The notes beneath the pieces were generated by a model. That model saw only the letters and a list, made by a program, of their open reading frames with translations. It was not told the DNA's origin and did no database searches. A stretch of DNA of 64,000 nt from an uncultured Planctomycetota bacterium (GTDB lineage: Bacteria > Planctomycetota > Planctomycetia > Isosphaerales > Isosphaeraceae), in contig CAWGMQ010000006.1 of the NCBI GenBank assembly GCA_963823665.1, positions 1,600,001-1,664,000 of the forward strand, written 5' to 3'. How positions within the stretch are numbered: the stretch's first letter is position 1; each line of letters starts with the position of its first letter. The translations under genes were made by a program, and so were the position numbers. Positions 8,724 to 25,085 of this stretch are shown here, one piece after another.

Positions 8724-9709
8724 TCAGCGAAGAGCTTGGGCGGCTTCTCGCAGGCGGGCTGCCGGGGTGTTGGCAGCAAGGTCGTCGATCATCTCGATCG
8801 TGGCCTGCTCGATGGCGGCCTGCCAGCGGTCGCTGAAGCGGTTGCGGAACGCCGCACGTTGGTATGCGAACGTGATGCCGCGCGAATTATTGACGATCGC
8901 TCCCAATCCGTCGGAATCGAATGCACCGGCGACGTCGCGCCCGTTGCGCCCTGGCTGCCGTAGCCGGGAACGAGGATTGGCACGCCGGGAAGTGCGCCAC
9001 GGAGCTCAGCGAGCTGGTCGGGGTACGTCGCGCCGACGACGGCCCCTACGAGGCTGTAGCCGCATTCACCGCGGTGCGGGAGAGCCCACTGTAACAGGCG
9101 GTCGGCCACATGCCGGTAGAGCGGCTTTCCTTCCGAGACGAGATCCTGGAATTCACCAGCGGAGCTGTTGCTGGTGCGTACCAGAACAAAGACGCCCTTC
9201 TTCTCGCGGGCGGCGACTTTGATGAATGGCGAGACTCCGTCGCTGCCCAAGTAGGGGTTGACGGTCAGCGCGTCGGCATGCCACGTACTTTCGAACGCTG
9301 CTCCAATGGGGACTTTGCCAAGGTAGCCTCGAGCATACGCCTCGGCGGTCGAGCCAATGTCGTTTCGTTTGCCGTCGATGATCACGGCCAAGCCATGCTC
9401 GCGCGCGTAGGCCGCACAGGAATTCAAGGCGGCGAGGCCATGCGGGCCGTAGGCTTCATAAAACGCAGATTGAAACTTCACGGCTGGAACAATGGGTGCG
9501 ATGACGTCGATCACGTCGCAGCCAAAACGGCAGAGTGCCTGTGGAACCCCTTCACAATCGGCCGCGAATCGTTCCAGGAAACCAGCCGGAAGTTCATCGG
9601 GGCGCGGGTCGATACCAACGCAGACCGGGTTACCGGCTCGTTGCATCGCCGCGAATAGACGGTCGACGAAGTGCACGAGTCGTTGCTCCACTTGGGGTTG
9701 GGTTGACAC
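8724..9709 (-). CDS. pyrF: Orotidine-5'-phosphate decarboxylase (frameshift near 8940)
   Basis: VCVGIDP, AVKFQSAFYE, DGKRNDIGST, TVNPYLG, GAVVGATYP, LVPGYG.QG; C-terminus VNNSRGI continues in ORF 8724-8906. Confidence 0.95.
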
Positions 9710-9730: not shown

Positions 9731-9788
9731 CTAACGGCCAACCAGGTATAGACTCAGCTTCAAGCTGTGCGCTATGCTGGGTGTACAT

Positions 9789-9864
9789 CGGGGCGTAGCG
9801 CAGCTTGGATTAGCGCGCTTGCTTGGGGTGCAAGAGGTCACCGGTTCAAATCCGGTCGCCCCGA
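9789..9864 (+). tRNA. tRNA-Pro(GGG)
   Basis: Acceptor stem CGGGGCG/CGCCCCG, anticodon arm CTTGC-TTGGGGT-GCAAG, T-arm ACCGG-TTCAAAT-CCGGT; CCA not encoded. Confidence 0.96.
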
Positions 9865-9866
9865 TT
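9823..9866 (+). repeat. attL core, 44-bp direct repeat (3' half of tRNA-Pro)
   Basis: TTGGGGTGCAAGAGGTCACCGGTTCAAATCCGGTCGCCCCGATT, identical at 25042-25085. Confidence 0.96.
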
Positions 9867-9997
9867 AGTCGAAAAGCGTTACAGCTAAAGACTTACAGAA
9901 ACTCGACGCCGAGATCGCGGAAGCCAAATACCCTAAGTTACGGGGTAGTCTACCCCGTAACTCGAAATGCAACCATGCACTTTGGGGGTTTTGAGCC

Positions 9998-11215
9998 ATG
10001 CGACCGAAGAACATCATTCCCACCTACCGACTCCACCAGGCGACCGGGCAAGCTCGTTGCGTCGTCAACGGCAAGACTCACTACCTGGGACCGTACGAAA
10101 GCCCAGAATCCCGGCGCGAGTATGCACGCATCCTTACCGAGCTGGCGGCCGGTAACGGGGTAGTCGCTACCCCGATTCCGGCTCCGTCTGGTACCACGTC
10201 AACGCCCGCCACGTCTGTCTTCGTCTCTGAACTCATCTTAGCTTACAGACGGCATGCGGCGGAATATTACGTCAAGAATGGTCGCAAGACTTCCGAAGTC
10301 GCGATCGTGAAGATGGCAACTGACGTCGTCCACGAGTTGTACCAGCAAAGCCAGGTGACGGAGTTCGGCCCTCTGGCGCTCACGGCATGCCAGCAAAAAC
10401 TCATCGATCAAAAGCTTGCTCGCTCGAGCGTCAACAAGCTGGTGAATCGAATTCGCCTCATGTTCAAGTGGGGTGTCGCGCACCAGATGGTGCCAGAATC
10501 CGTTCATCGGGCGCTTGAGTGCGTCGAGGGGCTTCGCAAGGGACGGAGCAAGGCGACGGAATCGAGAAAGATTCGTCCGGTTCCCGACCAGATCGTAGGC
10601 AAGGCAAGCCCGTTCATGCCGCGGCAGGTGGCTGCGATGGTGCAGCTCCAATCCTTGACCGGGTGCAGGCCCGGCGAAATCGTCATCATCCGCGGGTGTG
10701 ACCTGAACATGAGTGGCAAAATCTGGGAGTACAAGCCGGCGGCATGGAAAACAGAACATCACGAAGACGTTGCCGAGCGAGTGATCTACATCGGCCCGAA
10801 AGCCCAGCGGGTTCTCAAACCGTGGCTCCGTCCCAATTTGAGCGACTACCTGTTCAGCCCGAAAGAAGCGCTTGCCGAGCTCAATGCTGAGCGGCGTGAA
10901 AGTCGCAAGACGCCCGTCTATCCCTCGCATCAAGCCCGCTACGAGCGCGAGAAGGCCCGCCGAGGCCGTCGACCAGATCACGACCACTACACCGTGGAAA
11001 ACTACCGCCAGGCAATCGAGCGCGCTTGCGAAAAGGCCAAGGTGCCAGCGTTCAAGCCGAATCAGTTGCGGCATAGCCTGGCAACCCGGCTCCGTCGAGA
11101 CTTTGGACTCGAGGCCACGGCGGCGGTGCTCGGACATGAGGAATTGGAAACCAGCCAGATTTACGCCGAGAAAGACGCGAAGCTGGCCAAGCAGGTGATG
11201 GGCAAGATCGGTTAA
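9998..11215 (+). CDS. Tyrosine recombinase / phage integrase
   Basis: TGCRPGE, WKT, NQLRH, VLGH and TSQIY catalytic motifs; N-terminal arm-binding-like region; adjacent to attL. Confidence 0.95.
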   Translation: MRPKNIIPTYRLHQATGQARCVVNGKTHYLGPYESPESRREYARILTELAAGNGVVATPIPAPSGTTSTPATSVFVSELILAYRRHAAEYYVKNGRKTSEVAIVKMATDVVHELYQQSQVTEFGPLALTACQQKLIDQKLARSSVNKLVNRIRLMFKWGVAHQMVPESVHRALECVEGLRKGRSKATESRKIRPVPDQIVGKASPFMPRQVAAMVQLQSLTGCRPGEIVIIRGCDLNMSGKIWEYKPAAWKTEHHEDVAERVIYIGPKAQRVLKPWLRPNLSDYLFSPKEALAELNAERRESRKTPVYPSHQARYEREKARRGRRPDHDHYTVENYRQAIERACEKAKVPAFKPNQLRHSLATRLRRDFGLEATAAVLGHEELETSQIYAEKDAKLAKQVMGKIG

Positions 11216-11338
11216 CATCAAGGCAGCGGGACGGCTCGAGCGATTGCAAGCGATCGAGCCAAGCGGTCTAGCCGGTGTGGCGTTCTCCCCTGTTCGCCAT
11301 GTCGGCTAGATCGGCCCGTGAAAACAGGGGTGCACGAG

Positions 11339-11647
11339 ATGTCAGACAAGGATTTTCCACGGACCATTTCCGATATCCTGGCCATGCAGGAGGAAGCCGC
11401 CACTATCTGCCGCTTGATATCCGCTCAAATCGCAAATGAGCCCGCGGAATCTCCGAACGCGTCGCGCGATCGATACATCGTCAATGCGTACTTGGACGGC
11501 AAGTCATACGCAGACATTATTGAGGCCGTGAAACAAAAGCCACGGTGGTCAAGAATCAGTTCCGAGCCTGGCATCTTGCGCGTGATCAAGCGATATTGCA
11601 AAAAGAGGAACATAGACATAAAACTGCGCAATCAAAAGAAGAATTAG
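11339..11647 (+). CDS. Small basic protein, probable DNA-binding regulator
   Basis: RDRYIVNAYLDGKSYADI HTH-like segment and basic C-terminus; sits in the usual regulator position after the integrase. Confidence 0.5.
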   Translation: MSDKDFPRTISDILAMQEEAATICRLISAQIANEPAESPNASRDRYIVNAYLDGKSYADIIEAVKQKPRWSRISSEPGILRVIKRYCKKRNIDIKLRNQKKN

Positions 11648-11760
11648 CGCAATTTAGCGCCGTGCCAAACGTCGCGCTAAATCATGTCAATTGCAACTCA
11701 TCTCTTCATTTGTCATCTTGAATTCCAGTGGTACGGCACTCGTGCTAACTGGAGTTCAAA

Positions 11761-12192
11761 ATGTCCCGTCCGCGAATTCTTGACGAAGATCGATTGACGC
11801 TCGAAGAGGCCCGCGAACACTTCGGGACAAACGGAACGCCCGCTGATTTCACAACGGTCTATCGCGCCGTTGTCAAAGGCAGCGCTCTTCCAGACGGTGG
11901 TAGTCTGCACCTTGAGGCCATTCGGCTAGCAGGGCGATGGATCACGAGTAAGCAGGCGATTGAACGCTTTGTCGTCGCCTTGACCGAAGCATGGTCAGGC
12001 CGCGCACGAACGGGCCGAAGATCGCCACCAGGCGAGAGCGTAAACAGCTCTCCGACGCGGATGAAGCGCGGCTCGAGAGAGCAAATGCTGAACTGGCGGC
12101 GATGGCCTAACCGCGCAACGAAAACGGCCGGCCCGATGGTCAATCTTGCCGACCGTGTTCGTCATCTCATTCAGGAATACGGAACATCATGA
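11761..12192 (+). CDS. DUF1580-family HTH protein (AlpA/excisionase-like); 3' end uncertain
   Basis: LTLEEA...TTVYRAVVKG...LEAIRLAGRWITSKQAIERF, typical of planctomycete DUF1580. Confidence 0.8.
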   Translation: MSRPRILDEDRLTLEEAREHFGTNGTPADFTTVYRAVVKGSALPDGGSLHLEAIRLAGRWITSKQAIERFVVALTEAWSGRARTGRRSPPGESVNSSPTRMKRGSREQMLNWRRWPNRATKTAGPMVNLADRVRHLIQEYGTS

Positions 12193-12503
12193 ACGATACG
12201 CGACCAGATTCCGAGAAATCAAGATCCCTTACGGTGTCGCTTGCCGACCTGGCTGCGGAAATGACGCCGGAGCGCCGCGCACAACACGAAGGCGCTTATC
12301 GTCGGGGCGTTCATCAGGCTTTCGCGTTCGCAGCCGACGTCGCCTATCGAACGCGAGACGTGCGGGAGATTCGTCGCGTGTTGCGTCGGGCGGAGACGTT
12401 GGCGGGCGAGCTGAGATTCATCCGGAAGGATGAAGGTCGCGGCATGCTGCTGGATCACATCCGACAGCGGATCTACAGGCCGGCTCGGAAGGGGGCGAAA
12501 TGA
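12189..12503 (+). CDS. Hypothetical protein (satellite)
   Basis: Clean ORF, stop overlaps the next start (ATGA). Confidence 0.6.
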   Translation: MNDTRPDSEKSRSLTVSLADLAAEMTPERRAQHEGAYRRGVHQAFAFAADVAYRTRDVREIRRVLRRAETLAGELRFIRKDEGRGMLLDHIRQRIYRPARKGAK

Positions 12504-12724
12504 GGCCCCTATCCGGGCAGCAGAGTTTTCCGTTTGCTGCACCGACGCCCGCCGTCGCGGCCGCGGTGGTCGAAGATGGTCCACCGTGTTTGAAGTGCAA
12601 CCGGGCAACTGTCGTTTCCGGCGGCAAAGGCCCGCACTATAAGCGTGCCGATTGTCGCTCGTGTGGCGCGTGGTTCTGGATGCCAAAACCGAGGGCCGGC
12701 GGGCAAGGGGGCGCGTCGTCATGA
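12500..12724 (+). CDS. Small zinc-ribbon protein
   Basis: CLKC...GPHYKRADCRSC; ATGA overlaps on both sides. Confidence 0.65.
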   Translation: MRPLSGQQSFPFAAPTPAVAAAVVEDGPPCLKCNRATVVSGGKGPHYKRADCRSCGAWFWMPKPRAGGQGGASS

Positions 12725-15294
12725 CCTGCATGCTCGAGCGTTCCGCATTCGATACGGCACTACTGGCGCTTGACCTGGGGCTTTCGCCCGGTGTGCCGAT
12801 GCAAGACGGATCGAAGAAACCGGACGGGGCATGGAAGCAATACCAGACGAATCCAGCGACCAAGGGCGAGCTCGAGTCATGGTATCGGGACGGCCGAACG
12901 GGGGTCGGCTTGTTCACGGGATACGGCGACGCCGAATGTTTCGAGTTCGATTGCCGCGCGACCTATGACGATTTCTTGGACGCGCACGGCGACGCCGGGT
13001 TAACGGAATTGGTCGATCGCATCCGGTCGAACTATGAGGAATCCTCGCCAGGCGGTGGCATTCACTGGCTGTATCGGTGCTCGGAACGGCGGGGGAACAC
13101 AAAGCTGGCTGAACGGCCGGCGCCAACCGAGAGCGACCCGCACAAGACGGACGCGCTGATTGAAACTCGCGGAGAAGGCGGTTTTATCATCATCGCGCCG
13201 AGTAACGGGACGGTGCATCCGAGCGGCGGTGCATACAAACTCTTGAGCGGCGCACTCGGAATCATGGCAGTCATCACGCCGGAGGAACGCGACGCGCTCT
13301 GGAATTTCGCCCGGACGTTCGATGAAAAGCCAGAGCAGGCGACGGCGAAGTCGGGACCGTCTGAATTCGTTCAACGAGCATGGGATGGTCCGGCACGAAC
13401 GGACGGCAAGAAACCAGGCGAAGCCTTCAACGAGCAAATGACCTGGGAGGACATTCTCGAGCCGCACGGATGGACGGTGGCGTTTCGTCGGGGCGATAAG
13501 ACCTGGTGGCGGCGACCCGGCAAAGATCGCGACTGGTCGGCAACAACGGGGCATTGCAAAGGGCTCAAGGTCTTTTCGTCGTCCACGCCGTTCAGCACTC
13601 AGGGCACATACACCAAGTTCGGCGCGCACGCGATCTTGAACCACGGTGGCGATTTCAAGCAATCGACGAAGGCACTCGCCGCGGCTGGATTTGGTGAACA
13701 GTCGAGCCAGACCACGAAATCAACCCAGCAATCGCAGCCGACAGCACCGTCCGCGCCGCCGGTGTTTGATGGCGATCCGAGGCCGATCACGATCGCATTG
13801 CATCCGGTGCCGGAGCTCGATCCGCGCATGATCCCGCCGGTGTTCAGGGCATGGCTCGAGGATATTGCAGAGTGCGCATGCCTTCCGCTCGCCTATCCCG
13901 CGGCGGCGCTGTTCGTTGCTCTCAGCGGTCTGATCGGCCGGCGGGTTGCGATCCGTCCCAAGCAATTCGATGACTGGCTTGTCGTGCCGAATCTCTGGGG
14001 TGCCATCGTCGGGCCGCCGGGTTTCTTGAAGACCCCGGCAGTCGAGGCCGTCATGCGTCCGCTCAAGCGGCTTGTGGCCGATGCAATGGCAGAGCACGCC
14101 GCAAAGGTGAAGGAGCATAACGAGCGCCAGCTTGTCGCGACGGCTCGAAGGAAGGCCGCGCAGAAGAACCTGGACGCGGCCGCCAAGAAACCAGACGCGA
14201 CGGAAGCGGACCTGCAAGCACTCGCCAAGATTGCCTTGGCAGACGACACAGAAGAAGAACCGACGTGCAAGCGGTATCTCGTGAACGATTTCACGATCGA
14301 AAAACTGGGTGAATTACTGGTCGAGAACCCGAACGGGTTGACAGTGTTCCGAGATGAGTTGACCGGGTTGCTCAATACGCTGAATCGTGAGGGTCACCAG
14401 AGCGACCGGGGTTTTCTTCTCGAATCGTGGAACGGCAACGGGTCTTACACGTTCGATCGGATCGGCCGGGGCACTCAGCACATACCGGCGGCATGCCTGG
14501 CGCTCTTCGGGACCATCCAGCCCGGACCGCTCGCCCGGTATATGCAAGGGACCATCAAGGGCGATGAGGCGGACGGGTTTATCCCGCGGTTCCAGGTGCT
14601 CGTCTATCCGGACCCGCCGGCAAGCTATGACTATGTTGACCGATGGCCGGACAACGTGGCGAAGAACCACGCTTACAAAGTCTTCAAGGCAATCGACGAA
14701 TTGAACGCGGCGGAGAAAGGATGCAAGGTCGACAGCGACAGCGGGTTTCCCGTCATCAATTTCACACCAGAGGCGCAAGCGTTTTTCAACGGGTGGTATA
14801 CCGACCTGCAACGGCGAATCCGAAGCGGCGAGTTGACGGATATCCTGGCGGCGCATCTTGCGAAGTATGGCTCTTTGATGCCGAGCCTCGCTTTGATCTT
14901 TTATCTCGCGAATGACTGCCAAGCGTTCCAGCTTGGTGGCGTTCCGCTCGAAGATGCGGAAATGGCGGCGGCGTGGTGTGAGTATCTCGAGCAACACGCG
15001 CGGCGGGTCTACCTGCTATGTGCCGATGGCGACGTATCGGTTGCCGGGTCCCTCGCAGAGCGGATCAAGGAATCGCTGCCTGACCCGTTCACGTATCGCC
15101 AGGTGGCACAGAAGGGATGGTCAGGCCTGGGGACGGTGGACGACGTGGAAAGGGCTGTAGGCATCCTGGAAGACCGCGAGTGGGTCAAGACGGTCGAGGT
15201 TAAGTCGGGCGATGCGGCCGGACGGGGCAGACCATCGGTGAAGGTGCACATCCACCCGAAGCTTCGATCCGCCGGCGAAGGGGTGTCGTCATGA
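12721..15294 (+). CDS. Bifunctional primase-polymerase domain fused to DUF3987 (YfjI-like P-loop) replication protein
   Basis: KKP...WKQYQ, FEFD, SPGGGIHW, IETRGEGGFIIIAPS (Prim-Pol); PNLWGAIVGPPGFLKTP, FRDELTG, DRIGRG, GTIQP, DGFIPRF (DUF3987). Confidence 0.9.
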   Translation: MTCMLERSAFDTALLALDLGLSPGVPMQDGSKKPDGAWKQYQTNPATKGELESWYRDGRTGVGLFTGYGDAECFEFDCRATYDDFLDAHGDAGLTELVDRIRSNYEESSPGGGIHWLYRCSERRGNTKLAERPAPTESDPHKTDALIETRGEGGFIIIAPSNGTVHPSGGAYKLLSGALGIMAVITPEERDALWNFARTFDEKPEQATAKSGPSEFVQRAWDGPARTDGKKPGEAFNEQMTWEDILEPHGWTVAFRRGDKTWWRRPGKDRDWSATTGHCKGLKVFSSSTPFSTQGTYTKFGAHAILNHGGDFKQSTKALAAAGFGEQSSQTTKSTQQSQPTAPSAPPVFDGDPRPITIALHPVPELDPRMIPPVFRAWLEDIAECACLPLAYPAAALFVALSGLIGRRVAIRPKQFDDWLVVPNLWGAIVGPPGFLKTPAVEAVMRPLKRLVADAMAEHAAKVKEHNERQLVATARRKAAQKNLDAAAKKPDATEADLQALAKIALADDTEEEPTCKRYLVNDFTIEKLGELLVENPNGLTVFRDELTGLLNTLNREGHQSDRGFLLESWNGNGSYTFDRIGRGTQHIPAACLALFGTIQPGPLARYMQGTIKGDEADGFIPRFQVLVYPDPPASYDYVDRWPDNVAKNHAYKVFKAIDELNAAEKGCKVDSDSGFPVINFTPEAQAFFNGWYTDLQRRIRSGELTDILAAHLAKYGSLMPSLALIFYLANDCQAFQLGGVPLEDAEMAAAWCEYLEQHARRVYLLCADGDVSVAGSLAERIKESLPDPFTYRQVAQKGWSGLGTVDDVERAVGILEDREWVKTVEVKSGDAAGRGRPSVKVHIHPKLRSAGEGVSS

Positions 15295-15326
15295 AACACT
15301 TGGATGCACTCAATGCCAAGCGGGGT

Positions 15327-15537
15327 GTTTCTGTAGTTTCTGTAGGCAGTTCCGGACATAGATATGAAGAAAAAACGGACTATAAAATATCTTACTTACT
15401 TACCTTACCTACCTTACTAAATAACCACATAGGTGCGCGGATAGAAAAACTTACTCATTCCTTTGGCCAGGTGCCTACAGAAACTACGAAACCCGTCGCC
15501 AAATCGGAACGAATCGATTCTGTAGTTTTCGTAGGCA
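15327..15537. repeat. Iteron-like repeats around an AT-rich tract (putative replication origin)
   Basis: GTTTCTGTAGTTTCTGTAGGCA (15327-15348), inverted copy (15472-15492), ATTCTGTAGTTTTCGTAGGCA (15517-15537); CTTA/CCTA tandem at 15391-15417. Confidence 0.7.
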
Positions 15538-15625
15538 AAACGTGGGAACAAGAGCAACTCGACTCCACTCCGGCGGCAGGGCGGAGTCGAGCAACCAAAC
15601 ACGCCGCAAAAGGAAGGCAAGCACC

Positions 15626-15862
15626 ATGAGGATCACTCTGAACAATCCGAGCAACGTCACACTGGGCCGATGTCTGGATGATGACGCTGTGAGCATCCAA
15701 TTCAAGGACGGCGACAACACGGTCGAAGTGTGGGTCGGCAACGTCCAGGCGCTGGGGCTCTCAGTCGCTTTGCGGGACTGGGCCAAGCGCTCGCAGGAGA
15801 ACGAGGCTCTGGCCATGTGCGATTACAAGATCGGCAACAGGGAACCCGCCGGTGTCTTCTGA
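15626..15862 (+). CDS. Hypothetical protein (satellite)
   Basis: MRITLNNPSNV...; AAGGA upstream. Confidence 0.55.
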   Translation: MRITLNNPSNVTLGRCLDDDAVSIQFKDGDNTVEVWVGNVQALGLSVALRDWAKRSQENEALAMCDYKIGNREPAGVF

Positions 15863-15942
15863 CGAACACACAGGGCATGCGGGCCAGCCCGGCGCTCAAG
15901 CCTACTTCCCTTGGGCGTCGGGCTGGGATGGGAGACGTGACG

Positions 15943-16164
15943 ATGGCCACAGCACCAACAGCAGCACACACCAGAGCCAGGCGGGCATACAGCCCGGTGG
16001 AGTCGAGCGAGCCGATGAGTGATGAGGATCTCTACCACAAGAAGCGGGAAGGGTGGGCGCTGGTTAGCCGGCACGAACGCATGGGTAGGAACATGACTAC
16101 CTACTGGGTGTACATCTTCGAGCGGGACCCGCGCGTGAAGACGGAGGCGCGAACGTCATGGTGA
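15943..16164 (+). CDS. Hypothetical protein (satellite)
   Basis: MATAPTAAHT...REGWALVS...YIFER; GGAG upstream. Confidence 0.45.
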   Translation: MATAPTAAHTRARRAYSPVESSEPMSDEDLYHKKREGWALVSRHERMGRNMTTYWVYIFERDPRVKTEARTSW

Positions 16165-16194
16165 GCGCATGCAGTCGCGTGTTCAAGTGCAGAC

Positions 16195-16300
16195 GGGGGT
16201 ATGGGGGGGTATGGCTAGGCTAGGCGGGGCGGGTCAACACCTAGAAGTTGTGCGCCGTAAACCGCAGGTGGCCAAATCCGTGCTTGCAATCAGGTTTTTG
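16195..16300 (+). other. Putative cos-type packaging site
   Basis: Non-coding G-run region with GGGGCGGGTCAA...AAACCGCAGGTGGCCAAA...GGTTTTT upstream of a P27-type terS, the arrangement seen in HK97-like cos phages. Confidence 0.55.
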
Positions 16301-16447
16301 CTTCGTTGCCAGGATTCAGCCATGACACAACCCGATTAAACCCCGATTCTGACGCCCATACGCCTCGTGGAGACGTTTTCAGGGGCGAAACCACCTAACG
16401 GTCGGCTTGATCGATTACCGCCACGTGGACCATTTGAGGGACCCGCA

Positions 16448-16816
16448 ATGAGCACAGCCAAGAACCTGAAGATTCGACCGGCGAACCCGGACCCGCCATC
16501 CCACTTGTCCAACAAGGCCGCGGAAATGTGGCGCGCGATGGTCGCCGATTACCGCATGGCAGATGACTGCGTCGGGCTCGGCTTGCTTGAGGCCGCGCTA
16601 TCTGCCTTCGACCGGGCCGAGGAGGCGCGAGAGGTTCTTGACAGGGAAGGTCTGACCGTCAGCGGCGACCGCGGCGGGTCAAAAGCTCACCCGTTGTGTG
16701 CGGTCGAGCGCGACAACCGAGCAGCTTACATCGCGGGGATCAAGGCGCTCAGATTCGACGTCGTCGCAGCGCGGCCGGGACCTGGACGTCCAGCCGGCCC
16801 GGCGCGGAGGTACTGA
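16448..16816 (+). CDS. terS: Phage terminase small subunit, P27 family
   Basis: PPSHLS..A.EMW, LLEAA, AREVLDREGLTV, GGSKAHP. Confidence 0.88.
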   Translation: MSTAKNLKIRPANPDPPSHLSNKAAEMWRAMVADYRMADDCVGLGLLEAALSAFDRAEEAREVLDREGLTVSGDRGGSKAHPLCAVERDNRAAYIAGIKALRFDVVAARPGPGRPAGPARRY

Positions 16817-16818
16817 CC

Positions 16819-17253
16819 ATGTCAACCCAACGGTATCAATCCCGACGACCTGGGGGCGCGGCGGTGGAGCTGGATCGACTCGCCGAGTTCATGATTTTGG
16901 AAGCGCCCAATTCCGAGGGGCTGGACGAGGCGTTCGTCGCGGATTGGTGGGCGCAGAACGGCGAGCGCATCACCGAGGAGTGGATCGCCAGGCATCCCGG
17001 CTCGCGTCCGTGGCCGTGGTGGTGCTGGGATCACGGCAAGGAAAGGCCCGTCATCAACCCTGACCACGATCCCGCCTGCGATTTTGCCGTCAGGCGAGAT
17101 TCGTTTTTTGGCTTCGTTCACTCCGGAGTGTTTTCCGTCCAGCGCGGAGCGGACGGAAAGCTCTCTCATTCACCGTGGCAGGAACCCGAAGCAGACTACC
17201 TTGACCGCCGCGGTCTTTTGACGGAGACGGAACGGGAGCATTTTGACCTCTAA
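16819..17253 (+). CDS. Trp-rich hypothetical protein between terS and capsid
   Basis: WIARHPGSRPWPWWCWD...EPEADYLDRRGLL; 2-3 nt gaps to both neighbours. Confidence 0.75.
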   Translation: MSTQRYQSRRPGGAAVELDRLAEFMILEAPNSEGLDEAFVADWWAQNGERITEEWIARHPGSRPWPWWCWDHGKERPVINPDHDPACDFAVRRDSFFGFVHSGVFSVQRGADGKLSHSPWQEPEADYLDRRGLLTETEREHFDL

Positions 17254-17256
17254 CGC

Positions 17257-18612
17257 ATGAGTTTTCGATCACGTTTCAACCCTGATTTTCACCGAGAGAG
17301 GAAAACACCTATGAGTGCTTTGCAAACGAGAACCCGCCGGCGCGACACCATTCCCAAGGGCGGCGACCGGCTGGTTGACGACGAAATCGAGGACGCCTTC
17401 GGCGGAGACGGACCCAGCGACCCCGACCCGACGCAGCCCGACAATTCCAAGTTCGGCCAGCTTCCCGGATTGAAGGCGCTCTACGACGCTGCGAAGAAAG
17501 GCTACTTCTACAGCTTCGGCCGGGCGATCCACGGGGCTTTCAAGGCCGGACCGAACGGCACGCTTCCCGGACTCGAAGGCGAAGTCTCTCAGGAGATGTT
17601 GCTTCGCGCGCCCAATCAGCGGCGTGGTTACCGGGTGCCCTGGGTTTATCCGAGGCGTCCGGGCGAGCGCCGCGCCCTAACGTTGAGCGCCGGCGCAGGA
17701 AGCGTTACTCCGCAGCTTCAATCTCCCGTGGATGTTTTGCGCTCCAAGATGGTGTGCCAGCGGCTCGGCGCGAACGTCACCAACTTCACGGGCGAAGGAC
17801 CGCAAGGATTTATTCAAATCCCATTCAGATCGGCCGGCAGTACGGCGAGCTGGGTTGCCGAAAATGCGGCGCCGTCATCGTCCAGCAACGCCACGACGCA
17901 GGGGTGGGTCATGAAACCCAACACCGTCACGGCCTACTCGGACATCACGCGCCGGATGTTGACTCTCGGTCAGGAAGGATTTGAAGCCTACTCGCTCGCG
18001 GAGGTCATGCGATCAATCGCAGTCGAGGTCGATCGCGCGACGCTCAACGGCTCTGGTCAGAATTCGCAGCCCCTGGGAATCCTGCAAGACTTCCTGCCCA
18101 GCGTGACTCCCGCGGCTGGGCTGGGTGGTTCGATCGCCATCGCGGACTTGTACGAAATCGAGGCGACGCTTGGCCAGAATAACGGCGACGCGCCCGCCGA
18201 TTCTCGACTCGGCTGGGTCACCTCTCCCGCGGGCCGCAAGGCTCTGCGAAAAGTCGACCTGGGCGGCGCCACGGACACCGGGCACCCGGCGTGGTGGCCG
18301 AAAACCTACATCGTCGACAACAAGCCGGTCATTATCGAGGAATTGATCGGATGGCCGGCCCTTTCGACGTGTTCGGTGCCTGCCAACCTGAACGCTTCAA
18401 ACTACACGACGCTCGCTCTGGGTAATTGGAACGATGTGATCATCAATTTATGGGATGGCTTCGATTTCAACGCCATGCCCGCCACGGTAGTTAACCCCTT
18501 CCTTCAGAGCGTTTCGGGTGTCGTGCGCGTAAGTTGCTTTGTTGACGCCGACGTGTTGCTTGTTCGACCGGGTTCATTCTGTCTCTGCGCCGGCTGGGCG
18601 GCGCCGTACTGA
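17257..18612 (+). CDS. HK97-fold major capsid protein or capsid homologue (alternative start 17311)
   Basis: IQIP...ASWVAENAA, MKPNTVTAYSDITRRML, EVDRATLNGSG..QPLGIL, LALGNW, VRV...VDADV..RPGSF. Confidence 0.9.
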   Translation: MSFRSRFNPDFHRERKTPMSALQTRTRRRDTIPKGGDRLVDDEIEDAFGGDGPSDPDPTQPDNSKFGQLPGLKALYDAAKKGYFYSFGRAIHGAFKAGPNGTLPGLEGEVSQEMLLRAPNQRRGYRVPWVYPRRPGERRALTLSAGAGSVTPQLQSPVDVLRSKMVCQRLGANVTNFTGEGPQGFIQIPFRSAGSTASWVAENAAPSSSSNATTQGWVMKPNTVTAYSDITRRMLTLGQEGFEAYSLAEVMRSIAVEVDRATLNGSGQNSQPLGILQDFLPSVTPAAGLGGSIAIADLYEIEATLGQNNGDAPADSRLGWVTSPAGRKALRKVDLGGATDTGHPAWWPKTYIVDNKPVIIEELIGWPALSTCSVPANLNASNYTTLALGNWNDVIINLWDGFDFNAMPATVVNPFLQSVSGVVRVSCFVDADVLLVRPGSFCLCAGWAAPY

Positions 18613-18651
18613 TTCCTTTTCCTGATCGCAACCTTTTCGGAGACTCTCATC

Positions 18652-19189
18652 ATGACGGAAGCGGAAGAACAAGCGATGTTCGACAAGATGGTGGCACTGC
18701 GGGCCTGCGCCGCCTTGCAGGGTCCGTTTGACCGATCGCTGCAAGGGATTCCTGCGCGGACTCGTTTGGAAAACGACCGGCGACGAAGTGGAGCTCTCGG
18801 TACCCGAGGCGCAGGCACTGTGCGACAAGGGGCACGCCGAACCAGTCGGGCCGGCGGCTTGGTTCAAGAAATTCGTGGCTGCGATAAGGCCAGCACCCGA
18901 GGGACCGCCACGGCTCGACAAGCCAGGCCCGGGCCGAAGTTATCGAGGCCGAATGCGTCCAGGGAAGTCGTACTGGTACGCCGCCGGGCTCGAGTCCTAC
19001 GGTGACGATCGAGATATCTGGATCGACGAGGATACCGCGCGGGTGCTTGCGAATGCTCGCCAGTTTCAGCCGATCGAACCCAACTATATCCCGCCGGCGC
19101 CGGAAACGCCGGTCAAGCCAACCTGGCCGACGAATCAGTGGGGTTGCTCACCGATGGTCGGGCCGCCGCTTGGGCAACCTGAACACTGA
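18652..19189 (+). CDS. Hypothetical protein following capsid (probable frameshift near 18730)
   Basis: ORF from 18652 appears to join the frame of ORF 18728-19189. Confidence 0.5.
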
Positions 19190-19297
19190 ACCATCCGGGA
19201 CCGGCTCGGCGGTGGCCACGGGCTTAACCCTTTCGGCTCGTGGCGCCGTCGGGCCGGACCTGGATTCACATGAACGCTTTTCATAAAGGTCACGATC

Positions 19298-19465
19298 ATG
19301 ACTCAGACCACGAAAACCATCGAGTCAGCGACCAAGACTCCCGCACAACCGGCCGCTGCAATCCGATACCCGCTGTGCAGGTGCGGCAAGTCGTCGAGTC
19401 ACACGGCAAACAGACCCGGCGACGAAATCGTCGGCACATGCTCGGAGTGCGAGGCGAAAAAATGA
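19298..19465 (+). CDS. 55-aa Cys-rich microprotein (not in the ORF track)
   Basis: MTQTTKTIES...LCRCGK...GTCSECEAKK*; AAAGGT upstream. Confidence 0.55.
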   Translation: MTQTTKTIESATKTPAQPAAAIRYPLCRCGKSSSHTANRPGDEIVGTCSECEAKK

Positions 19466-19586
19466 ATCCCACCAGGCCGGCGAGAGGGTGTAAGGAGAAT
19501 GAACAAAGCGGACAAATGTTGCCAACGTCCGTTTGCCCTGATCGCCGCGCCTGGACTTTCACACGAACAACCAGAGGACACAGGCC

Positions 19587-19965
19587 ATGAGTCAAACAGC
19601 GAACGCGGAGCTTGCCAGGGCGGCTCCAGTCGGCAATCTCGAGCGATCCCACATGCCGGGTGTGCCGCAAGAGAACAGCGACGGAGTTCGAGTCGAGCGG
19701 CGGAAAAATCACGGCGATTGTGTGCGCCGAGTGCTCGGAAGACATTCAGGAAACCAGAGCTCTCGCCAACGGCTCATGCGAAGCGCGTAGGGACATGCTT
19801 CGCCACCAGACCGCGTTCAGAGCGGCGAAAGTATGCAGCGTCTGCCGGACCGGCAAGCCCGCGGGAACGACGACGAATGACTACGGCGGCATTATCGTCA
19901 CGTGTAAATCGTGCCAGGAGAAAGCCCGGACGAGGGAAAGGGCTATGAGGTTATCGCGTGCGTGA
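19587..19965 (+). CDS. Double zinc-ribbon protein (frameshift near 19650)
   Basis: CRVC..CAEC..CSVC..CKSC; GAGGA upstream of ATG 19587. Confidence 0.6.
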
Positions 19966-20206
19966 CTACGCCGAAATCAACGCCGACATGCAGGAAGCGC
20001 GTCGGAAACTGCAAGAGATCGACATGCAGCTCTCGCAGCTCTCGGCGACGGCGCGGAACAGCCCTTTCGGCCGAGAGTTTGGCGGCTACCGTGAACAGCT
20101 CTTGGCGAAACTTCGGGACCTGCGCGCCGAATTGCTGGCAACGGCAGAGGACGAGTCGAAGTGCCGGCGAGAGGGAACGTTCAAAAGAGTCGAGGGGGCG
20201 GCATGA
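19958..20206 (+). CDS. Small coiled-coil hypothetical protein
   Basis: Heptad-like helical pattern; overlaps the previous stop. Confidence 0.5.
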   Translation: MRDYAEINADMQEARRKLQEIDMQLSQLSATARNSPFGREFGGYREQLLAKLRDLRAELLATAEDESKCRREGTFKRVEGAA

Positions 20207-20366
20207 TCAACCAGAAGTCACCACATCAACCCGAGGCCCGACGAACAATCGCCTATGACGCTCGCAAGTCACAGGCCGCGCGTGGGCTCGGATCAACTCC
20301 ACCAGAGCGACCGCCGCTAAAAGAGCGCCTCGAGCGGCTTCGCCACAAACAGGAAACCGGCAAATC

Positions 20367-20564
20367 ATGATGCAACTGTACCCGCCACTCAGCGTTGAGA
20401 TCATTGGCAAGGGACCTGCTCTCGCGGTCGGCGCGATCGACCACGGGGCAGGCCACGAATTGACGTTGGTGGTGATCGCCAAGGCAGACGGGGCGATCAC
20501 AGCGGAGCCGATATCGAAGCTCAGAGGCGCCGGGGTTTACGTGACGGGCGAGCAAAAACCATAA
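20367..20564 (+). CDS. Hypothetical protein
   Basis: Clean 65-aa ORF in a chain of overlapping small ORFs. Confidence 0.5.
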   Translation: MMQLYPPLSVEIIGKGPALAVGAIDHGAGHELTLVVIAKADGAITAEPISKLRGAGVYVTGEQKP

Positions 20565-21058
20565 AATCCCGAATATCTATCGGGTGCTTATGGGTTTGCA
20601 GCCTCAAAAACATGGGGAAAATCGGGGTCGAGTAGCTTCTGAGGAACCTGGACGGTGACGATGCGAATAAAATCGAAACAACAGCCGAGGCCCGAGGCGC
20701 CGACGCCGGACCCGCGCGGGGACTTCGGGCCACGTTGTGACGACTGTCAGGCAGTGACGACTATTCGGGCCAGCGACGCCGGACCGGTCGCGGTGTGTCA
20801 GTGTGGGGCGGTGAAAGCCCTGCGGCGGCGGGGTGGGTTGCGTCGTCCAGACGCCTCGCCATGAGGCCCGAGGCGCTTCGGTCGAGGGATTCGGCGGGCG
20901 CGCTATCGCATCGCAGGGGATTGGGACATTTGTCGTTCGCGGTGTTATACTAATGAGCAGTGTGCGCCCAGATAGGCGGTTGCAAAATTTGCCGAGTCAC
21001 GTAACATCACTTAGGGTCTAACGAAGTTGTTTCTAACTAATCTATTCGGAGTGCCTCG

Positions 21059-21727
21059 ATGTCGAAAGACTCCGACTTATTCGGTGTTGTCGTAATCGGG
21101 GCAATGAACCCGCGAATTCATCATCCGGCGTGGTACCAGTTGGTAAAACTGATTAGCGGCCAAGAAGCAGAACATGCCACCCAAACGCAGCCAGTCGTGT
21201 GTACTCCAGCGTATTCCCAATTCGGACTGGGCGAGATCGATATCAAGTGTCTACCCGACCGATGGGACATAACAACCCGATCGAGCGCGAACATCGATCG
21301 AATCCGCGAAATCGCACAACGGCTGTTCGACGATGTGCTCCTGCACACTCCGGTAAACATCGTGGCGCTAAATTTCGAGTACGTCCGTCAGGTTTCCGGT
21401 GCAAACGCAACGGAGATTATCGCTCGGAAGTTGAACGTCGCGGCCGGGGAGTTGGGCCTGGGCAATGCGGAGGCGGGTGATCTTTTTCTAAAGCGAGCCC
21501 TTGTGACGAACGAATCCGTGCAAGGAATCGCGACTGTCATAGTACGGACTGCGGACAGCTCGGATATGTTCGGGCTTTCTTGCAATTATCAATATACGAT
21601 AAGGCTTAGCGACGGACTGTTTCGGTTCGACGCGTTTCTGCCCGAATATGCACAGCGTGACCGAGTTGACGCGGAACAATCACTAGCGCGACTGACATCC
21701 GCGATAGCTTCCGCGCGAAAGGACTAA
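21059..21727 (+). CDS. Cargo gene 1, hypothetical (TIGR04255-like by pattern)
   Basis: VVVIGAMNPRIHHPAWY...LLHTPVNIVALNF; GGAG RBS; more AT-rich than host genes. Confidence 0.8.
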   Translation: MSKDSDLFGVVVIGAMNPRIHHPAWYQLVKLISGQEAEHATQTQPVVCTPAYSQFGLGEIDIKCLPDRWDITTRSSANIDRIREIAQRLFDDVLLHTPVNIVALNFEYVRQVSGANATEIIARKLNVAAGELGLGNAEAGDLFLKRALVTNESVQGIATVIVRTADSSDMFGLSCNYQYTIRLSDGLFRFDAFLPEYAQRDRVDAEQSLARLTSAIASARKD

Positions 21728-21730
21728 CCC

Positions 21731-22336
21731 GTGGCCATTGCGATCCAAATGCCGACATCTTTGAAGAACGAAAATCTTTTCGCCGAAACAATGGATACTT
21801 GGCAGTCAATCGAGACGGCTCTCGTGGACTGCTGGCGCATGTTCGGCGGCGCTCCAGTCTCGCCAGCGATCTCGGTGCAGGGAGCGCTGGAACGGAGCGC
21901 GGACCAAGCCCAAATCCTCCACGACCACGCCTTACGTTTGTCCGGTAGGCTTATGGTTCACAAACAATTGGAGCGAGTGCGGCGACTGCGGCAAAACTGG
22001 GACGGCGACGGTGCCGATCCGATCAACCCGGCGATCATCGCAACAGCCAGCCGATTCCTTGCTAAGTTCGGAGACAGCTTTCGCACTTCGCCGCGCGTCG
22101 TTCCAATGACAATGGGTCGAGTTCAATTGGAATGGCATCGGGGCAACCGTTCGCTGGAAATCGAATTTGAGACGCCTGAACTTGTACACTATCTGAAGTG
22201 GGATAGCGACGAGGCCATCGAAGAGGAAGAACTTATCCCTGCTTCGTCGGAAGTCGCTATTAGAAATCTACTGTTGTGGTTCTCCTCGGAGAAGAGGAAT
22301 GCCGATCCCGCCGGACGCAGGTCCACAAGTGCCTGA
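21731..22336 (+). CDS. Cargo gene 2, hypothetical (NWDG.GA.PI...GRVQLEW type)
   Basis: 3 nt after gene 1; LRQNWDGDGADPINP...PMTMGRVQLEWHRGNRSLEIEF. Confidence 0.8.
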   Translation: MAIAIQMPTSLKNENLFAETMDTWQSIETALVDCWRMFGGAPVSPAISVQGALERSADQAQILHDHALRLSGRLMVHKQLERVRRLRQNWDGDGADPINPAIIATASRFLAKFGDSFRTSPRVVPMTMGRVQLEWHRGNRSLEIEFETPELVHYLKWDSDEAIEEEELIPASSEVAIRNLLLWFSSEKRNADPAGRRSTSA

Positions 22337-22700
22337 TTTCGAGAATGTACTTAGAGGAATAGTCGACGAAATGCAATGGGATTGTGAAAGCGACTGTCCC
22401 TCGAGCGCTGCCTTCGATAAGGCGATATTCTCTGTGGATCGAAGCGCGCTTACTACGCCGCCGGAAACTGTCGCCAGACTTCGCTCGTTTGGCATGTCAG
22501 TTCTAGCCTTGGTGGAGTTCAACTGTGGAGAGGCGAGGAAACATGGTTTTGATACGCGGGACGAGCGCGACGATGTGGCTCCTGATAACGCCGCGCACGC
22601 GCATGTCTACAATTTGTGGTACACCGAAGAGTCAACCAAAGCCGGGCGCAAGAAAAAAGCCAGAAAAATGAAGGATATCTGCTCAAAAGTGACGTTCTGA
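22299..22700 (+). CDS. Cargo gene 3, putative ADP-ribosyltransferase-fold toxin
   Basis: VLRG...PSSAAF...FSVD...NAAHAHV pattern; overlaps gene 2 by 38 nt. Confidence 0.65.
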   Translation: MPIPPDAGPQVPDFENVLRGIVDEMQWDCESDCPSSAAFDKAIFSVDRSALTTPPETVARLRSFGMSVLALVEFNCGEARKHGFDTRDERDDVAPDNAAHAHVYNLWYTEESTKAGRKKKARKMKDICSKVTF

Positions 22701-22819
22701 TGACTGCCAAGGCGTTTCGCGCTTCCCACTGCGCCCGCTCAATCGCAATCGAACCATCGGGCGCAAAGAACCGGCTGCAAGATCCCAGTGGGAAGGTATG
22801 GTCCGCGCCGAGCTCATGG

Positions 22820-23029
22820 CTACGGATCGGGCTCGAGCACAACCGTCCCGTCCGCTCGTTCGATCGCGATACCCCAGCGGCGCGAGGTGTGACCAGACGG
22901 GAGCGGATCTCCGCTTATCTCGTCCACGTGGTAACGACCCGGCTCGCTCGAGCGAATCGCGGGCTCAAGCTGGTCGATGGTATCGACGTCGACGATGGGC
23001 TCTTGTCCGTTCTGGGTGATTCTGAACAT
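22820..23029 (-). CDS. Small hypothetical protein
   Basis: 69-aa ORF, PGRYHVDEI..DPLPSGHTSRRWG. Confidence 0.6.
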   Translation of the reverse strand: MFRITQNGQEPIVDVDTIDQLEPAIRSSEPGRYHVDEISGDPLPSGHTSRRWGIAIERADGTVVLEPDP

Positions 23030-23057
23030 CGGCGTTCTATTACTGAAAGACCATGTC

Positions 23058-23342
23058 TCAGCCTCGGAACCGGGAGAAGCCTCGCCAATGAACCGCTACC
23101 GAGATAATCCAGCACACCACGAAAAAGACCGGCATCCATGCTAATATATAACCGCGCCGGGGGGCCTCGCCCGTCATGGTGTGGATGGCGTCCCAACCGC
23201 AAATGGTCCAAAAGATAGCTGTTACCAGGCCTACGAGTGAAATGCCTGCTTTGAGTGGTTCCGTGTTAGCGGCTCCTAGAGCGGCGACAAGTATCGTGGC
23301 CGCAAGCAAGAAAATCTCGGAGAGTTTGAATAGATCGTCCAA
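23058..23342 (-). CDS. Small three-TM membrane protein
   Basis: Three hydrophobic segments; AAGGAG RBS before a TTG start. Confidence 0.65.
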   Translation of the reverse strand: MDDLFKLSEIFLLAATILVAALGAANTEPLKAGISLVGLVTAIFWTICGWDAIHTMTGEAPRRGYILAWMPVFFVVCWIISVAVHWRGFSRFRG

Positions 23343-23454
23343 TTCGGGCTCCTTGATTGAGCGAAAGTTCGTCGAGTCCCGATGCCGTAGTCAATATGCG
23401 GGTGGGCGAGCGTAATCACAAGACGGTAGCAGTGCAAAAAGAAAAGTTGATTGC

Positions 23455-23547
23455 CACCTGAAGAACCTGCCGGTCGCGAAGGAGCGGATGTACCTGGCGG
23501 GGTTAAGGCTGGCGAGGGTCCTCAACGAGGCGTTGGCCGATGAGTGA
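23455..23547 (+). pseudogene. 3' remnant of an S1/P1 nuclease gene
   Basis: Translates HLKNLPVAKERMYLAGLRLARVLNEALADE*, aligning with HLPVVRKRLYQASIRLALTLNEVFPDE* of ORF 31653-32498. Confidence 0.65.
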
Positions 23548-23569
23548 TCAAGATGGCGCACGGGGTGGG

Positions 23570-24135
23570 TTACTGTCGACCAGCAGGGGAGATGACCCCG
23601 AAGAATAATATCAGGATGAACACGACCGGCACGGCAAAGGCGAGCCCCAAAAGTATCGCCTGCTGCAGATCAGGTAGGACCTGGAACCAGGCCCACGGGC
23701 CGGGCTGAATGCCTCTTGCGAGATAGACGGTGTTTTGTCTGGCGCACCGACTTTTGTATCGTAGGACAACTGACTGCCAGCATGACACAGTGCGCTTCCA
23801 GCATGACACGGCGCATGCCGCTATCGCCTTAGCGAATCGCCGCACTTGTTCGCGCTGCGCTTTATCTCGCGCCTAGTCGCCTCTGCGGACGCCGTTGAAG
23901 ATTGGACGAGGTTATATCCGCAAGATCGGCAGTGCGTTCGCGATCCCTTCAGGGAGATCTGCCTGCCGCAAACGGGGCAGTAGGGAAGTCCGTTCCTCCA
24001 GACCGCGTTCTGACTTTTGTTGATCGCTTGTATCACCGCGATGACGCAAGCTGCCAGCGAAAGCAGTACCACGATCAGAGCGACGACGGGGTTCTCTTGG
24101 TGCTTCGCGGCGAACAAGACCACGCTTGTCAACAT
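23570..24135 (-). CDS. Membrane protein with zinc ribbon (frameshift near 23850)
   Basis: TM, CPVC..CRSC, then a C-terminal TM in ORF 23570-23845. Confidence 0.55.
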
Positions 24136-24594
24136 CGTGGTTCTCCAACCGGGGCTGGCGGCCCGCAATCGCTTACAGGACGGCTTGAGGCAAGCATGGG
24201 ATGCCCGGGCCGCTACCTGGCAGGCCAACGCCCGGGCTGGCGGGGTTCATGATCGCGCCAGCGCGAGAGTGAAGTACCTTCGAGCGCGACGGCGCACCAA
24301 TCCGGCCGAGCACCTTAGGATCCGCCTGGCTCCGCGGGCCGGACGGTATCTAGTTTCGCTGAGCGGAAGGGGCATCGCAAGCGGGTGGAGTTGTCACGCC
24401 CGAGGCCCTATACGCTCGCCAGGGGCGTCCGCGGTGCTCTGGACGTGGAAAGCGTCGGCCAGGCGCTCTGAATCGCTGTCAAAGGGCTATGGATGGCTGG
24501 ACGCCCGGACTTCGCTCACGTGAACCCCATCCGCTCACCTAAGGATTCGTACGCCTTGCGATGGGCTTCGACGTATAGCTCAGTTTGGTGAGCG

Positions 24595-24846
24595 TCATAT
24601 CCGGTTCTCGTCAGCTTGTTCCTTGGCGAATTCGATTGCCTGGGCCGACAGGACGTCAAACATTTCCCTCTGGGTCTTCCCAAGCAAAGGTGCTGCGAGC
24701 ACGGCCATCTGCCCGTTGAATCGCACTCCGTGAAAAATCTCGTTCAGGAATGCCTCTCGCTGCTCGGGGGTTCCATTCATCCCATTGCGGCGAAACTCGA
24801 ACATCTTTTGTTCCAATTCCCTGCCCAGCGTCCACCAATTCATCAT
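24595..24846 (-). CDS. Hypothetical protein
   Basis: AAGGAGGA RBS; 83-aa helical ORF. Confidence 0.65.
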   Translation of the reverse strand: MMNWWTLGRELEQKMFEFRRNGMNGTPEQREAFLNEIFHGVRFNGQMAVLAAPLLGKTQREMFDVLSAQAIEFAKEQADENRI

Positions 24847-25041
24847 TCCTCCTTGCGGTGCATCCCGCGGATGACGGCGGCGCTAATCAATCGGGGTAAC
24901 TACCCTAAAACCCTACCGATTACCCAATAATATCGCAAATGAGAGCAGTTTCGGGGTAGTATTGCAAATGGGCGAAAACTACGGTATTATGCTGCATTTA
25001 TAGGGTATTTCGATTCTGACTCACAGGGGTTTCGGGGTTCT

Positions 25042-25085
25042 TTGGGGTGCAAGAGGTCACCGGTTCAAATCCGGTCGCCCCGATT
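25042..25085 (+). repeat. attR core, 44-bp direct repeat
   Basis: Identical to 9823-9866. Confidence 0.96.

Follow-up and report, generated by a model that had tools for sequence, protein, structure and literature searches.

The 64,000-nucleotide window analysed here, from an uncultured member of the Isosphaeraceae (Planctomycetota; contig CAWGMQ010000006.1), carries a 15.2-kb island integrated in a tRNA-Pro gene. By gene content the island is a phage-inducible chromosomal island (PICI) and therefore not a new kind of element. It is very likely a helper-dependent satellite of some kind, and probably a PICI-type satellite packaged from a cos site, with a capsid protein that co-assembles with the capsid of an HK97-like cos helper and redirects head formation in the manner of the Ccm protein of SaPIbov5. 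What is new in this case is a scaffold-less capsid clade that is shared with phages encoding two capsids, a protein encoded in the slot of the large terminase gene (terL), and a defined cos motif.

The island is delimited by an identical 44-bp repeat at its two ends, with a spacing of 15,219 bp, and this att sequence corresponds to the final 44 bp of tRNA-Pro(ggg), as had been proposed from the letters of the DNA alone (hereafter the sequence-only reading). The gene inventory of that reading also held up overall, and the corrections concern a small regulator, a DUF1580 match and one open reading frame (ORF). The integrase, a component of the SatelliteFinder model of PICIs, passes the PF00589 cut-off and is 53% identical to the integrase found at the same site in G029, a genome of the same genus. 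The Prim-Pol and DUF3987 domains of the replicase, both correctly named, exceed their cut-offs as in PICI primase-replicases, and the gene has a ratio of nonsynonymous to synonymous substitution rates (dN/dS) of 0.13-0.22 against two homologs. The capsid gene, likewise correctly recognised, passes the PF05065 and TIGR01554 cut-offs and encodes an HK97 fold, as expected of PICI capsid morphogenesis. Profile matches and full-length frames agree with the claim that the integrase, replicase and capsid ORFs are intact. The small regulator claimed behind the integrase gave no significant match. The proposal of DUF1580 in place of AlpA stands for the position of the gene and is weak for its family identity (13.9 bits against a cut-off of 24.4), although one homolog in the same slot passes the DUF1580 cut-off. 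This ORF has no AlpA or MerR match, sister islands carry HTH_17 or near-cut-off AlpA matches in that slot, and the DUF1580 profile found nothing significant in the PDB. The zinc-ribbon ORF is present with weak zinc-ribbon matches only, and an ORF at 15291-15629, which overlies the origin-like repeats, is probably not a gene.

The genes that a complete phage would need for its head and tail were not found. Profiles of the family's own terL, portal, protease and tape-measure proteins gave no match in 321 six-frame stretches of the island (at least 30 residues each), and 860 proteins from 33 prophage loci matched the island only at primases, terS (the small terminase gene) and capsids. The claim that terL, portal and tail genes are missing is thus upheld, with none hidden among the small ORFs. 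Barring very divergent small genes, the island lacks the tail, holin, portal and head-tail genes whose absence characterises PICIs. It also lacks the terL, portal, head-tail adaptor and connector that a capsid-forming PICI (cf-PICI) encodes for itself, as well as the tape-measure gene, serine integrase, head-tail adaptor and stopper of the EPIPs. Neither the terL, portal or tail remnants nor the broken core genes of a decayed prophage were seen, and the indels in small genes are absent from short-read contigs.

The island is one of a group of related elements. A profile of the focal capsid gave 36 matches in 24 of the other 120 genomes, 19 of them inside modules that combine terL, portal, protease and capsid. 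Fifteen of the other 17 were examined and comprise seven att-bounded islands (14,170-16,620 bp, at tRNA-Gln, SeC, Arg, Lys and Pro), one island of 7,604 bp, two loci without att and five on short contigs. When islands found through the gene for a 144-aa protein (described below) or through DNA similarity are added, twelve att-bounded relatives, the focal island included, measure 14.2-16.6 kb (standard deviation 0.84) over six tRNA types; this set leaves out the 7.6-kb island, a sibling in the host genome (G000) for which no clear att was seen, and elements with terL (16.9 and 30.2 kb). The closest layout is that of L172, which occupies the same pyrF-tRNA-Pro site and carries an integrase, a DUF1580-like gene, a primase, terS, a capsid, small ORFs and restriction-modification cargo. 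In G029 a different island of 15,545 bp lies between the same flanks, bounded by the identical 44 bp, with fragments of a Terminase_6 terL and another capsid. The two other occupants of the site are thus 15.5 and 16.5 kb long and neither is a full-length prophage; in this small sample the focal island has, as PICIs do, an att-bounded location at a site without prophages. The PICI core without the excluded genes and the shortness of the same-site relatives support the satellite lineage suggested by the sequence-only reading.

A tape-measure gene is present in six of the seven capsid islands, in three of them together with a tail chaperone and an HK97 gp10-like gene, and is missing from the focal island and L172. 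The tape-measure genes of the sisters are under purifying selection (dN/dS 0.21-0.32), and such tail genes could be read as a sign of phage descent. The terL-less loci with a tape-measure gene, some with a tail chaperone or gp10-like gene, are L168, L169, L170, L171, L173, L174, L308 and L045, and no major tail protein was recognised in them. An idea that these genes specify short tails was dropped, as the sister tape-measures (about 510-680 aa) are not clearly shorter than those of family prophages (about 470-880 aa).

Canonical capsids of the family have about 100-135 residues ahead of a GLEGE motif, which read as a coiled-coil hairpin. Among the capsids listed, with starts judged by eye, those of the clade that includes the focal protein mostly have 24-65 residues in this position, and the focal lineage has 74-86 that are acidic and rich in proline and glycine. 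In the AlphaFold model (predicted local distance difference test, pLDDT, 82) residues 1-60 form only short, low-confidence helices and the rest is a confident HK97 fold. Like Ccm, the focal capsid combines a shortened delta domain with the absence of an own protease on the island. An E-x-R motif ahead of the mature domain, which would be the cleavage site, is kept in 47 of 64 short and canonical capsids. The satellite capsids have dN/dS values of 0.12-0.20, and satellite and second phage capsids together 0.09-0.33, indicating purifying selection, with two pairs near saturation. The best identity to capsids of cultured phages is 26-27%.

It is unlikely that the satellite, following a reduced version of the cf-PICI strategy, makes the entire head with its own capsid and needs to borrow no more than portal, protease, TerL and tail. 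The full HK97 fold with its confident core would suit such a builder, as would the N-terminus of 74-86 residues, longer than in other short capsids, and a sister island (L173, inside a large array of more than 20 tRNA genes on G091:C38) has its own prohead protease behind the capsid gene. Against this stand the lack of a coiled-coil scaffold and of any recognised separate scaffold gene, the lack of the portal and head-tail genes that define cf-PICIs, and the finding that every phage with a short-clade capsid (4 of 4) has a canonical one beside it. The model matches HK97-fold shells, and the presence of encapsulins among these matches raises the extremely improbable reading of an integrative element with an encapsulin-like shell that has nothing to do with DNA transfer. 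Portal-less mini genomes with HK97 proteins have been described (PMC13669383, available in part, as were the other papers cited by number below), yet in the island only Phage_capsid domains match, terS and a cos-like site lie directly upstream, the relatives of the clade are phage capsids, and no cargo enzyme is adjacent.

In a quick tree of 77 capsids the focal protein falls in a clade of 24 (support 97 in the Shimodaira-Hasegawa-like approximate likelihood ratio test, SH-aLRT) whose members include 10 of the 15 terL-less capsids of the family and none of the canonical ones. A more careful tree of 36 sequences, picked from the first and with its root not fixed, separates the short clade from the canonical capsids with support of 96/96. 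The same short clade is present in complete phages: four tailed phage contigs with terL, portal, protease and a canonical capsid also encode a second, short-clade capsid, and in two of them a major tail protein was recognised. In these viral and metagenome contigs (L008/L043, L046, L048 and L013) the canonical capsid lies behind the protease and the scaffold-less one beside terL, before it in two phages and after it in two, and both sets of capsids form tight clades. The retention of the short capsid next to a canonical one in four tailed phages fits the part of a co-assembling subunit. Two further loci, L143 (G112:C32) and L061, have two capsid genes in tandem.

The clade of second phage capsids (100/100) is sister to the group that contains the focal lineage (98/95). 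Because second phage capsids are among the nearest neighbours, descent by reduction from a two-capsid prophage (terS, short capsid, terL, portal and so on), with loss of everything from terL to the tail, has to be considered, and we regard it as distinctly unlikely. The order of terS followed by the short capsid in L008 and L046 agrees with a deletion remnant of this kind, as do the sister relationship of the capsids, the tail-related genes retained in six sister islands, and the same-site island in G029 with its terL fragments and different capsid. The focal island, however, shows no trace of terL, portal, protease or tail in any of its reading frames, its core ORFs are intact and both att sites are present. 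A gene not found in terL loci, that of the 144-aa protein, lies between terS and capsid both here and in L169, the sizes are tightly distributed over six tRNA types, and the second phage capsids, whose place in the head module varies, are nested within the island capsids. Although the root is not fixed, this nesting favours capture of the gene from satellites by phages.

The evidence for packaging from a cos site comes from a motif upstream of terS that is shared by 16 of 35 phage and island loci and consists of a G-run, about 30 nt, ACCG, a 10-nt core and a T-run. In the HK97-type layout cos lies between HNH and terS, and from this placement the motif is probably the cos site. With a matrix built without the focal site, position 16261 is the best match in the 64-kb window, 187 bp before terS. 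Two island-like contigs have a nearly identical core, as does the two-capsid phage L048. Of two IMG/VR matches to the core, L048 alone is a locus with a phage head; the other has no phage head genes by the profiles used. A capsid-less sibling island in the host genome (L298, G000:C10:691400-707000) has the same 15-nt core and spacing. It carries an integrase, a DUF1580-like gene, a P4-type primase, an inverted copy of the cos core, two terS-like ORFs and a homolog of the 144-aa protein. The small terminase matches PHROG 83 and its own family profile (E 7e-30), as a PICI small terminase does, although it scores under the Pfam (20.0 against 24.7 bits) and TIGR01558 (30.3 against 45.6 bits) cut-offs, so that the claimed terS is confirmed by PHROG 83 and not by the curated thresholds. 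It has no C-terminal GLTP/acidic-aromatic tail, which is present in prophage TerS. The motif, which family prophages share, and the P27-type terS agree with the earlier guess of an HK97-like cos helper. A strict-pattern match in G039 was discarded, as it sits in an ordinary gene.

The slot of terL is occupied by a tryptophan-rich 144-aa protein with 85 homologs. Within the 121 family genomes the gene was found at eight places in six genomes, at seven of the places after terS and at the eighth on a 2.9-kb contig beside an integrase. It was not found in any terL locus examined, and the focal island and L169, in another genus, both have it between terS and capsid. Its model is confident (pLDDT 84) and has no fold match among 48,161 PDB representatives or in BFVD, which does not by itself establish a new fold; its Atlas matches are all under 0.9. 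Derivation from the N-terminus of terL was rejected (best E 0.22 against 59 terL frames). From its position we would guess that the protein is a partner of TerS in packaging. The top-ranked family member is named as a protein of Aquisphaera giovannonii (Isosphaeraceae, Planctomycetota), and as a cultured isosphaeracean thus carries the family, the model can be tested.

Taken as a satellite cycle, these components would act as follows. An incoming or induced helper would switch on the DUF1580-like regulator, the integrase would excise the island at the 44-bp att core, and replication by the Prim-Pol/DUF3987 protein would start at the repeat-flanked origin. The short capsid protein, presumably incapable of scaffolding a shell alone, would enter helper procapsids, be cut by the helper protease at the E-x-R motif common to both capsids, and bias assembly toward small heads. 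The island TerS, probably with the 144-aa protein, would steer the helper TerL to the island cos site, and portal, tail and lysis functions of the helper would finish the particle.

Several observations weigh against this scheme. Five terL-less capsids fall outside the short clade in the 77-sequence tree, and the nearest well-supported neighbours of the focal lineage (98/95) include second capsids of full phages. The focal cos score of 18.8 is within the maxima of shuffled sequences (17.5 +/- 2.2), so that the case for the cos-like site of the sequence-only reading is carried by position and homologous sites and not by score; the strict pattern is near chance level across the 121 genomes. The terS and DUF1580 matches are below curated cut-offs. 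No joint of an attP circle or an empty attB was seen in four shallow soil runs, which at a depth of 2-4 are uninformative; a 1,587-bp joint with a 21-nt side was set aside as likely spurious. Capsid-less siblings are of the same size (14.5 and 16.0 kb) and two copies of the island (30.4 kb) equal one family prophage (30.2 kb), and because of this size alone does not show that heads are made smaller. The same figures suit another, similarly unlikely reading, in which the satellite is packaged as dimers in normal helper heads and the capsid paralog is an assembly poison or defence factor instead of a size switch: twice 15.2 kb approaches the 30,244-bp family prophage, an island of 7,604 bp has half the focal size, and the capsid-less siblings share size and cos core. 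Phages, however, keep the paralog under purifying selection (dN/dS 0.09-0.33), which fits a constructive role, and the cleavage-like motif is kept.

The helper is the remaining point against the scheme. In the host assembly (16.46 Mb, 12 contigs, 91.9% complete) profile searches found a single PF05065 capsid, no PF03354 terL and no PF04860 portal, and with neither an HK97/cos terL or portal nor a second capsid there, no helper is in hand; the cos prophage that the sequence-only reading proposed to look for was not found in the assembled part. The only match to phrog_9 (terL) is a fragment in a decayed island. The decayed related island L200 beside pyrG (G000:C10:1324500-1339500) has terL fragments and a DUF3987 helicase 65% identical to the focal one. 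The assembly also has two full-length terL genes of the Terminase_6 type and another portal, which were rejected as a cos helper, being of another packaging type with no recognised capsid nearby. The terL genes lie among host-like genes (G000:C2:82743-91700 and G000:C4:163814-164410), with a portal-like gene at a distance of 7 kb from one of them, and are possibly a gene transfer agent-like or domesticated module. In the family as a whole HK97/cos prophages are common, with terL in 22 of 121 genomes.

SaPIbov5 is a staphylococcal, Stl-repressed island. The delta domain of its Ccm measures 87 residues against 128 in the helper capsid, and Ccm forms pentamers and builds no shell alone (PMC8569155). 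Like SaPIbov5, the focal island is probably a cos-type satellite, with an HK97 capsid homolog that has a shortened N-terminal delta domain and with no protease of its own; in contrast, the focal capsid lacks the coiled-coil part altogether, the focal island has terS, the paralog also occurs in full phages, and co-assembly is predicted. In gene order the island resembles PICI type A and B#var03 of SatelliteFinder, with which it shares integrase, regulator, primase/replicase, terS and capsid and the lack of portal, head-tail, tail and holin genes, terS preceding the capsid as in B#var03; it differs in having a DUF1580-like gene where these have AlpA, MerR or Stl, and an additional gene, that of the 144-aa protein, between terS and capsid (PMC10085698). 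EcCICFT073 and PmCI172 also carry a cos site and a small activator ahead of pri-rep, and small heads are produced by PmCI172, which has a gene for a capsid homolog; unlike the focal island, they are gammaproteobacterial, use AlpA and depend on lambda-type cos or Mu-type helpers (PMC6092414). The cf-PICIs have their own capsid gene, terS and the 15-kb size class in common with the island, but also terL, portal, protease and head-tail genes, none of which it has (PMC10085698). The EPIPs of Mycolicibacterium encode their own tape-measure protein, as do six sister islands, and terS and a capsid gene are also listed for them, but they have a serine integrase and head-tail adaptors, and the focal island has no tape-measure gene (PMC12822802). 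Tape-measure modules are also found in PLEs, which parasitise a lytic myophage (PMC12987554).

Planctomycetes are not mentioned in the main texts of the SatelliteFinder paper (PMC10085698), Eppley et al. and Aguilar et al. (PMC13669383), whose supplements could list such elements, and a title-level search for planctomycete satellites or DUF1580, with subscription journals largely outside its coverage, gave no relevant paper. The island extends capsid-encoding PICI-type satellites to Planctomycetota and makes available a family of at least 12 same-sized islands with candidate HK97/cos helpers and a common cos motif. It further provides another candidate for Ccm-style head redirection, evolved independently of the first, together with a protein family that is specific to satellites, lies in the terL slot and has no fold match, and it shows a capsid gene of satellite type inside full phages. 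A wider and rather doubtful proposal is that isosphaeracean cos phages and satellites share a scaffold-less vertex capsid with which satellites reshape helper heads and which one tailed-phage lineage captured as a second capsid, and that satellites also swap terL for a tryptophan-rich packaging adaptor and often add a tape-measure protein. If true, satellites would have three separate modules with which to remodel the head, the packaging motor and the tail.

Table 1. Features of the island and its target site (positions in the 64,000-nucleotide window)
Feature	Position	Strand	Evidence
tRNA-Pro(ggg), integration target beside pyrF	9788..9865	+	ARAGORN
attL, 44 bp, 3' part of tRNA-Pro	9823..9866	+	exact repeat
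Tyrosine integrase, 405 aa, catalytic R, K, R, H, Y motifs present	9998..11215	+	PF00589 E 8.5e-14
109-aa ORF, function unknown	11318..11647	+	no significant family match
DUF1580-like small regulator in AlpA slot, one-base indel near 12005	11761..12110	+	weak DUF1580 match
104-aa ORF and 74-aa zinc-ribbon ORF, stop/start-coupled to primase	12189..12724	+	sequence; weak zinc-ribbon matches only
Prim-Pol primase fused to DUF3987 helicase, 857 aa, intact	12721..15294	+	Prim-Pol E 1.5e-8, DUF3987 E 1e-82
Origin-like region (putative), TTCTGTAG-type repeats in both orientations around AT-richer stretch	15327..15530	.	
Two small ORFs (78 and 74 aa), unknown	15626..16164	+	no significant matches
cos-like site: G-run, ~30 nt, then ACCG and 10-nt core	16226..16274	+	position, homologous sites
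P27-type small terminase, 122 aa	16448..16816	+	PHROG 83 E 4e-10
144-aa Trp-rich protein, terL slot (W..PGxRPxxWW..D..P / ExxYLxRxGLL family)	16819..17253	+	
HK97-fold capsid paralog, 433 aa, without N-terminal coiled-coil scaffold, E-x-R-A-L motif kept	17311..18612	+	PF05065 E 2e-20
DUF7210-like ORF behind capsid, one-base indel at 18706	18652..19189	+	weak Pfam match E 0.02
Six small ORFs, three with Cys-pair zinc motifs, unknown	19298..20864	+	two with homologs in sister islands
Three-gene cargo cassette (222, 201, 133 aa), lower G+C	21059..22700	+	middle gene like PDC-M32A, PADLOC E 1e-9
Small cargo ORFs, partly repeated elsewhere in host genome	22820..24846	-	
attR, 44 bp	25042..25085	+	exact repeat

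Beyond the twelve islands, the capsid profile matched 25 of 400 genomes in a sample of the phylum; the surroundings of eight of these matches were portal- or prophage-type or gave too little context, and no further short-clade island was among them. In viral contigs a scan with a single protein gave no match, and an alignment-based scan gave matches. The 7,604-bp island, at tRNA-Val (L175, G037), consists of an integrase and a canonical-type capsid and is nearly exactly half the focal size. A 16,875-bp element at tRNA-Ser (L176, G120) carries terS, terL, portal, protease, capsid and head connectors, and behind these it encodes glycosidase-like and laminin G proteins; no tail tube was recognised in it, and it is a candidate cf-PICI-like or tail-less element. 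Islands L313 (G036) and L181/L182 (G029) have terS and terL, and no portal or capsid was found in them.

Single-base indels separate the window from near-identical short-read contigs (four soil runs from two studies, depth 2-4, which may stem from the source site) at 12005/6, 18706, 22758, 23871 and 24605 and in the host gene pyrF (8939), and are probably errors of the long-read assembly. The pyrF gene (8789-9709), which appears frameshifted in the assembly and has an extra base in a short-read contig, serves as a control for such indels. Five sequencing runs share words with the window, at 5-17% of its words, and no RNA run is among those listed.

Downstream of the capsid, DUF7210 matches recur in the same position in sister islands. 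The cargo is lower in G+C (56% against 60%). Its three-gene cassette is a candidate defence system, and the same three genes stand together elsewhere in G029 (L201:9611-11292) at 52-60% identity. The 133-aa third protein of the cassette belongs to a family common in Planctomycetota, and Atlas look-alikes of a cargo protein are commonest there. Segments 22760-23030 and 24200-24480 of the window are repeated at 70-87% identity at several places in the host genome and G029, often near island ends.

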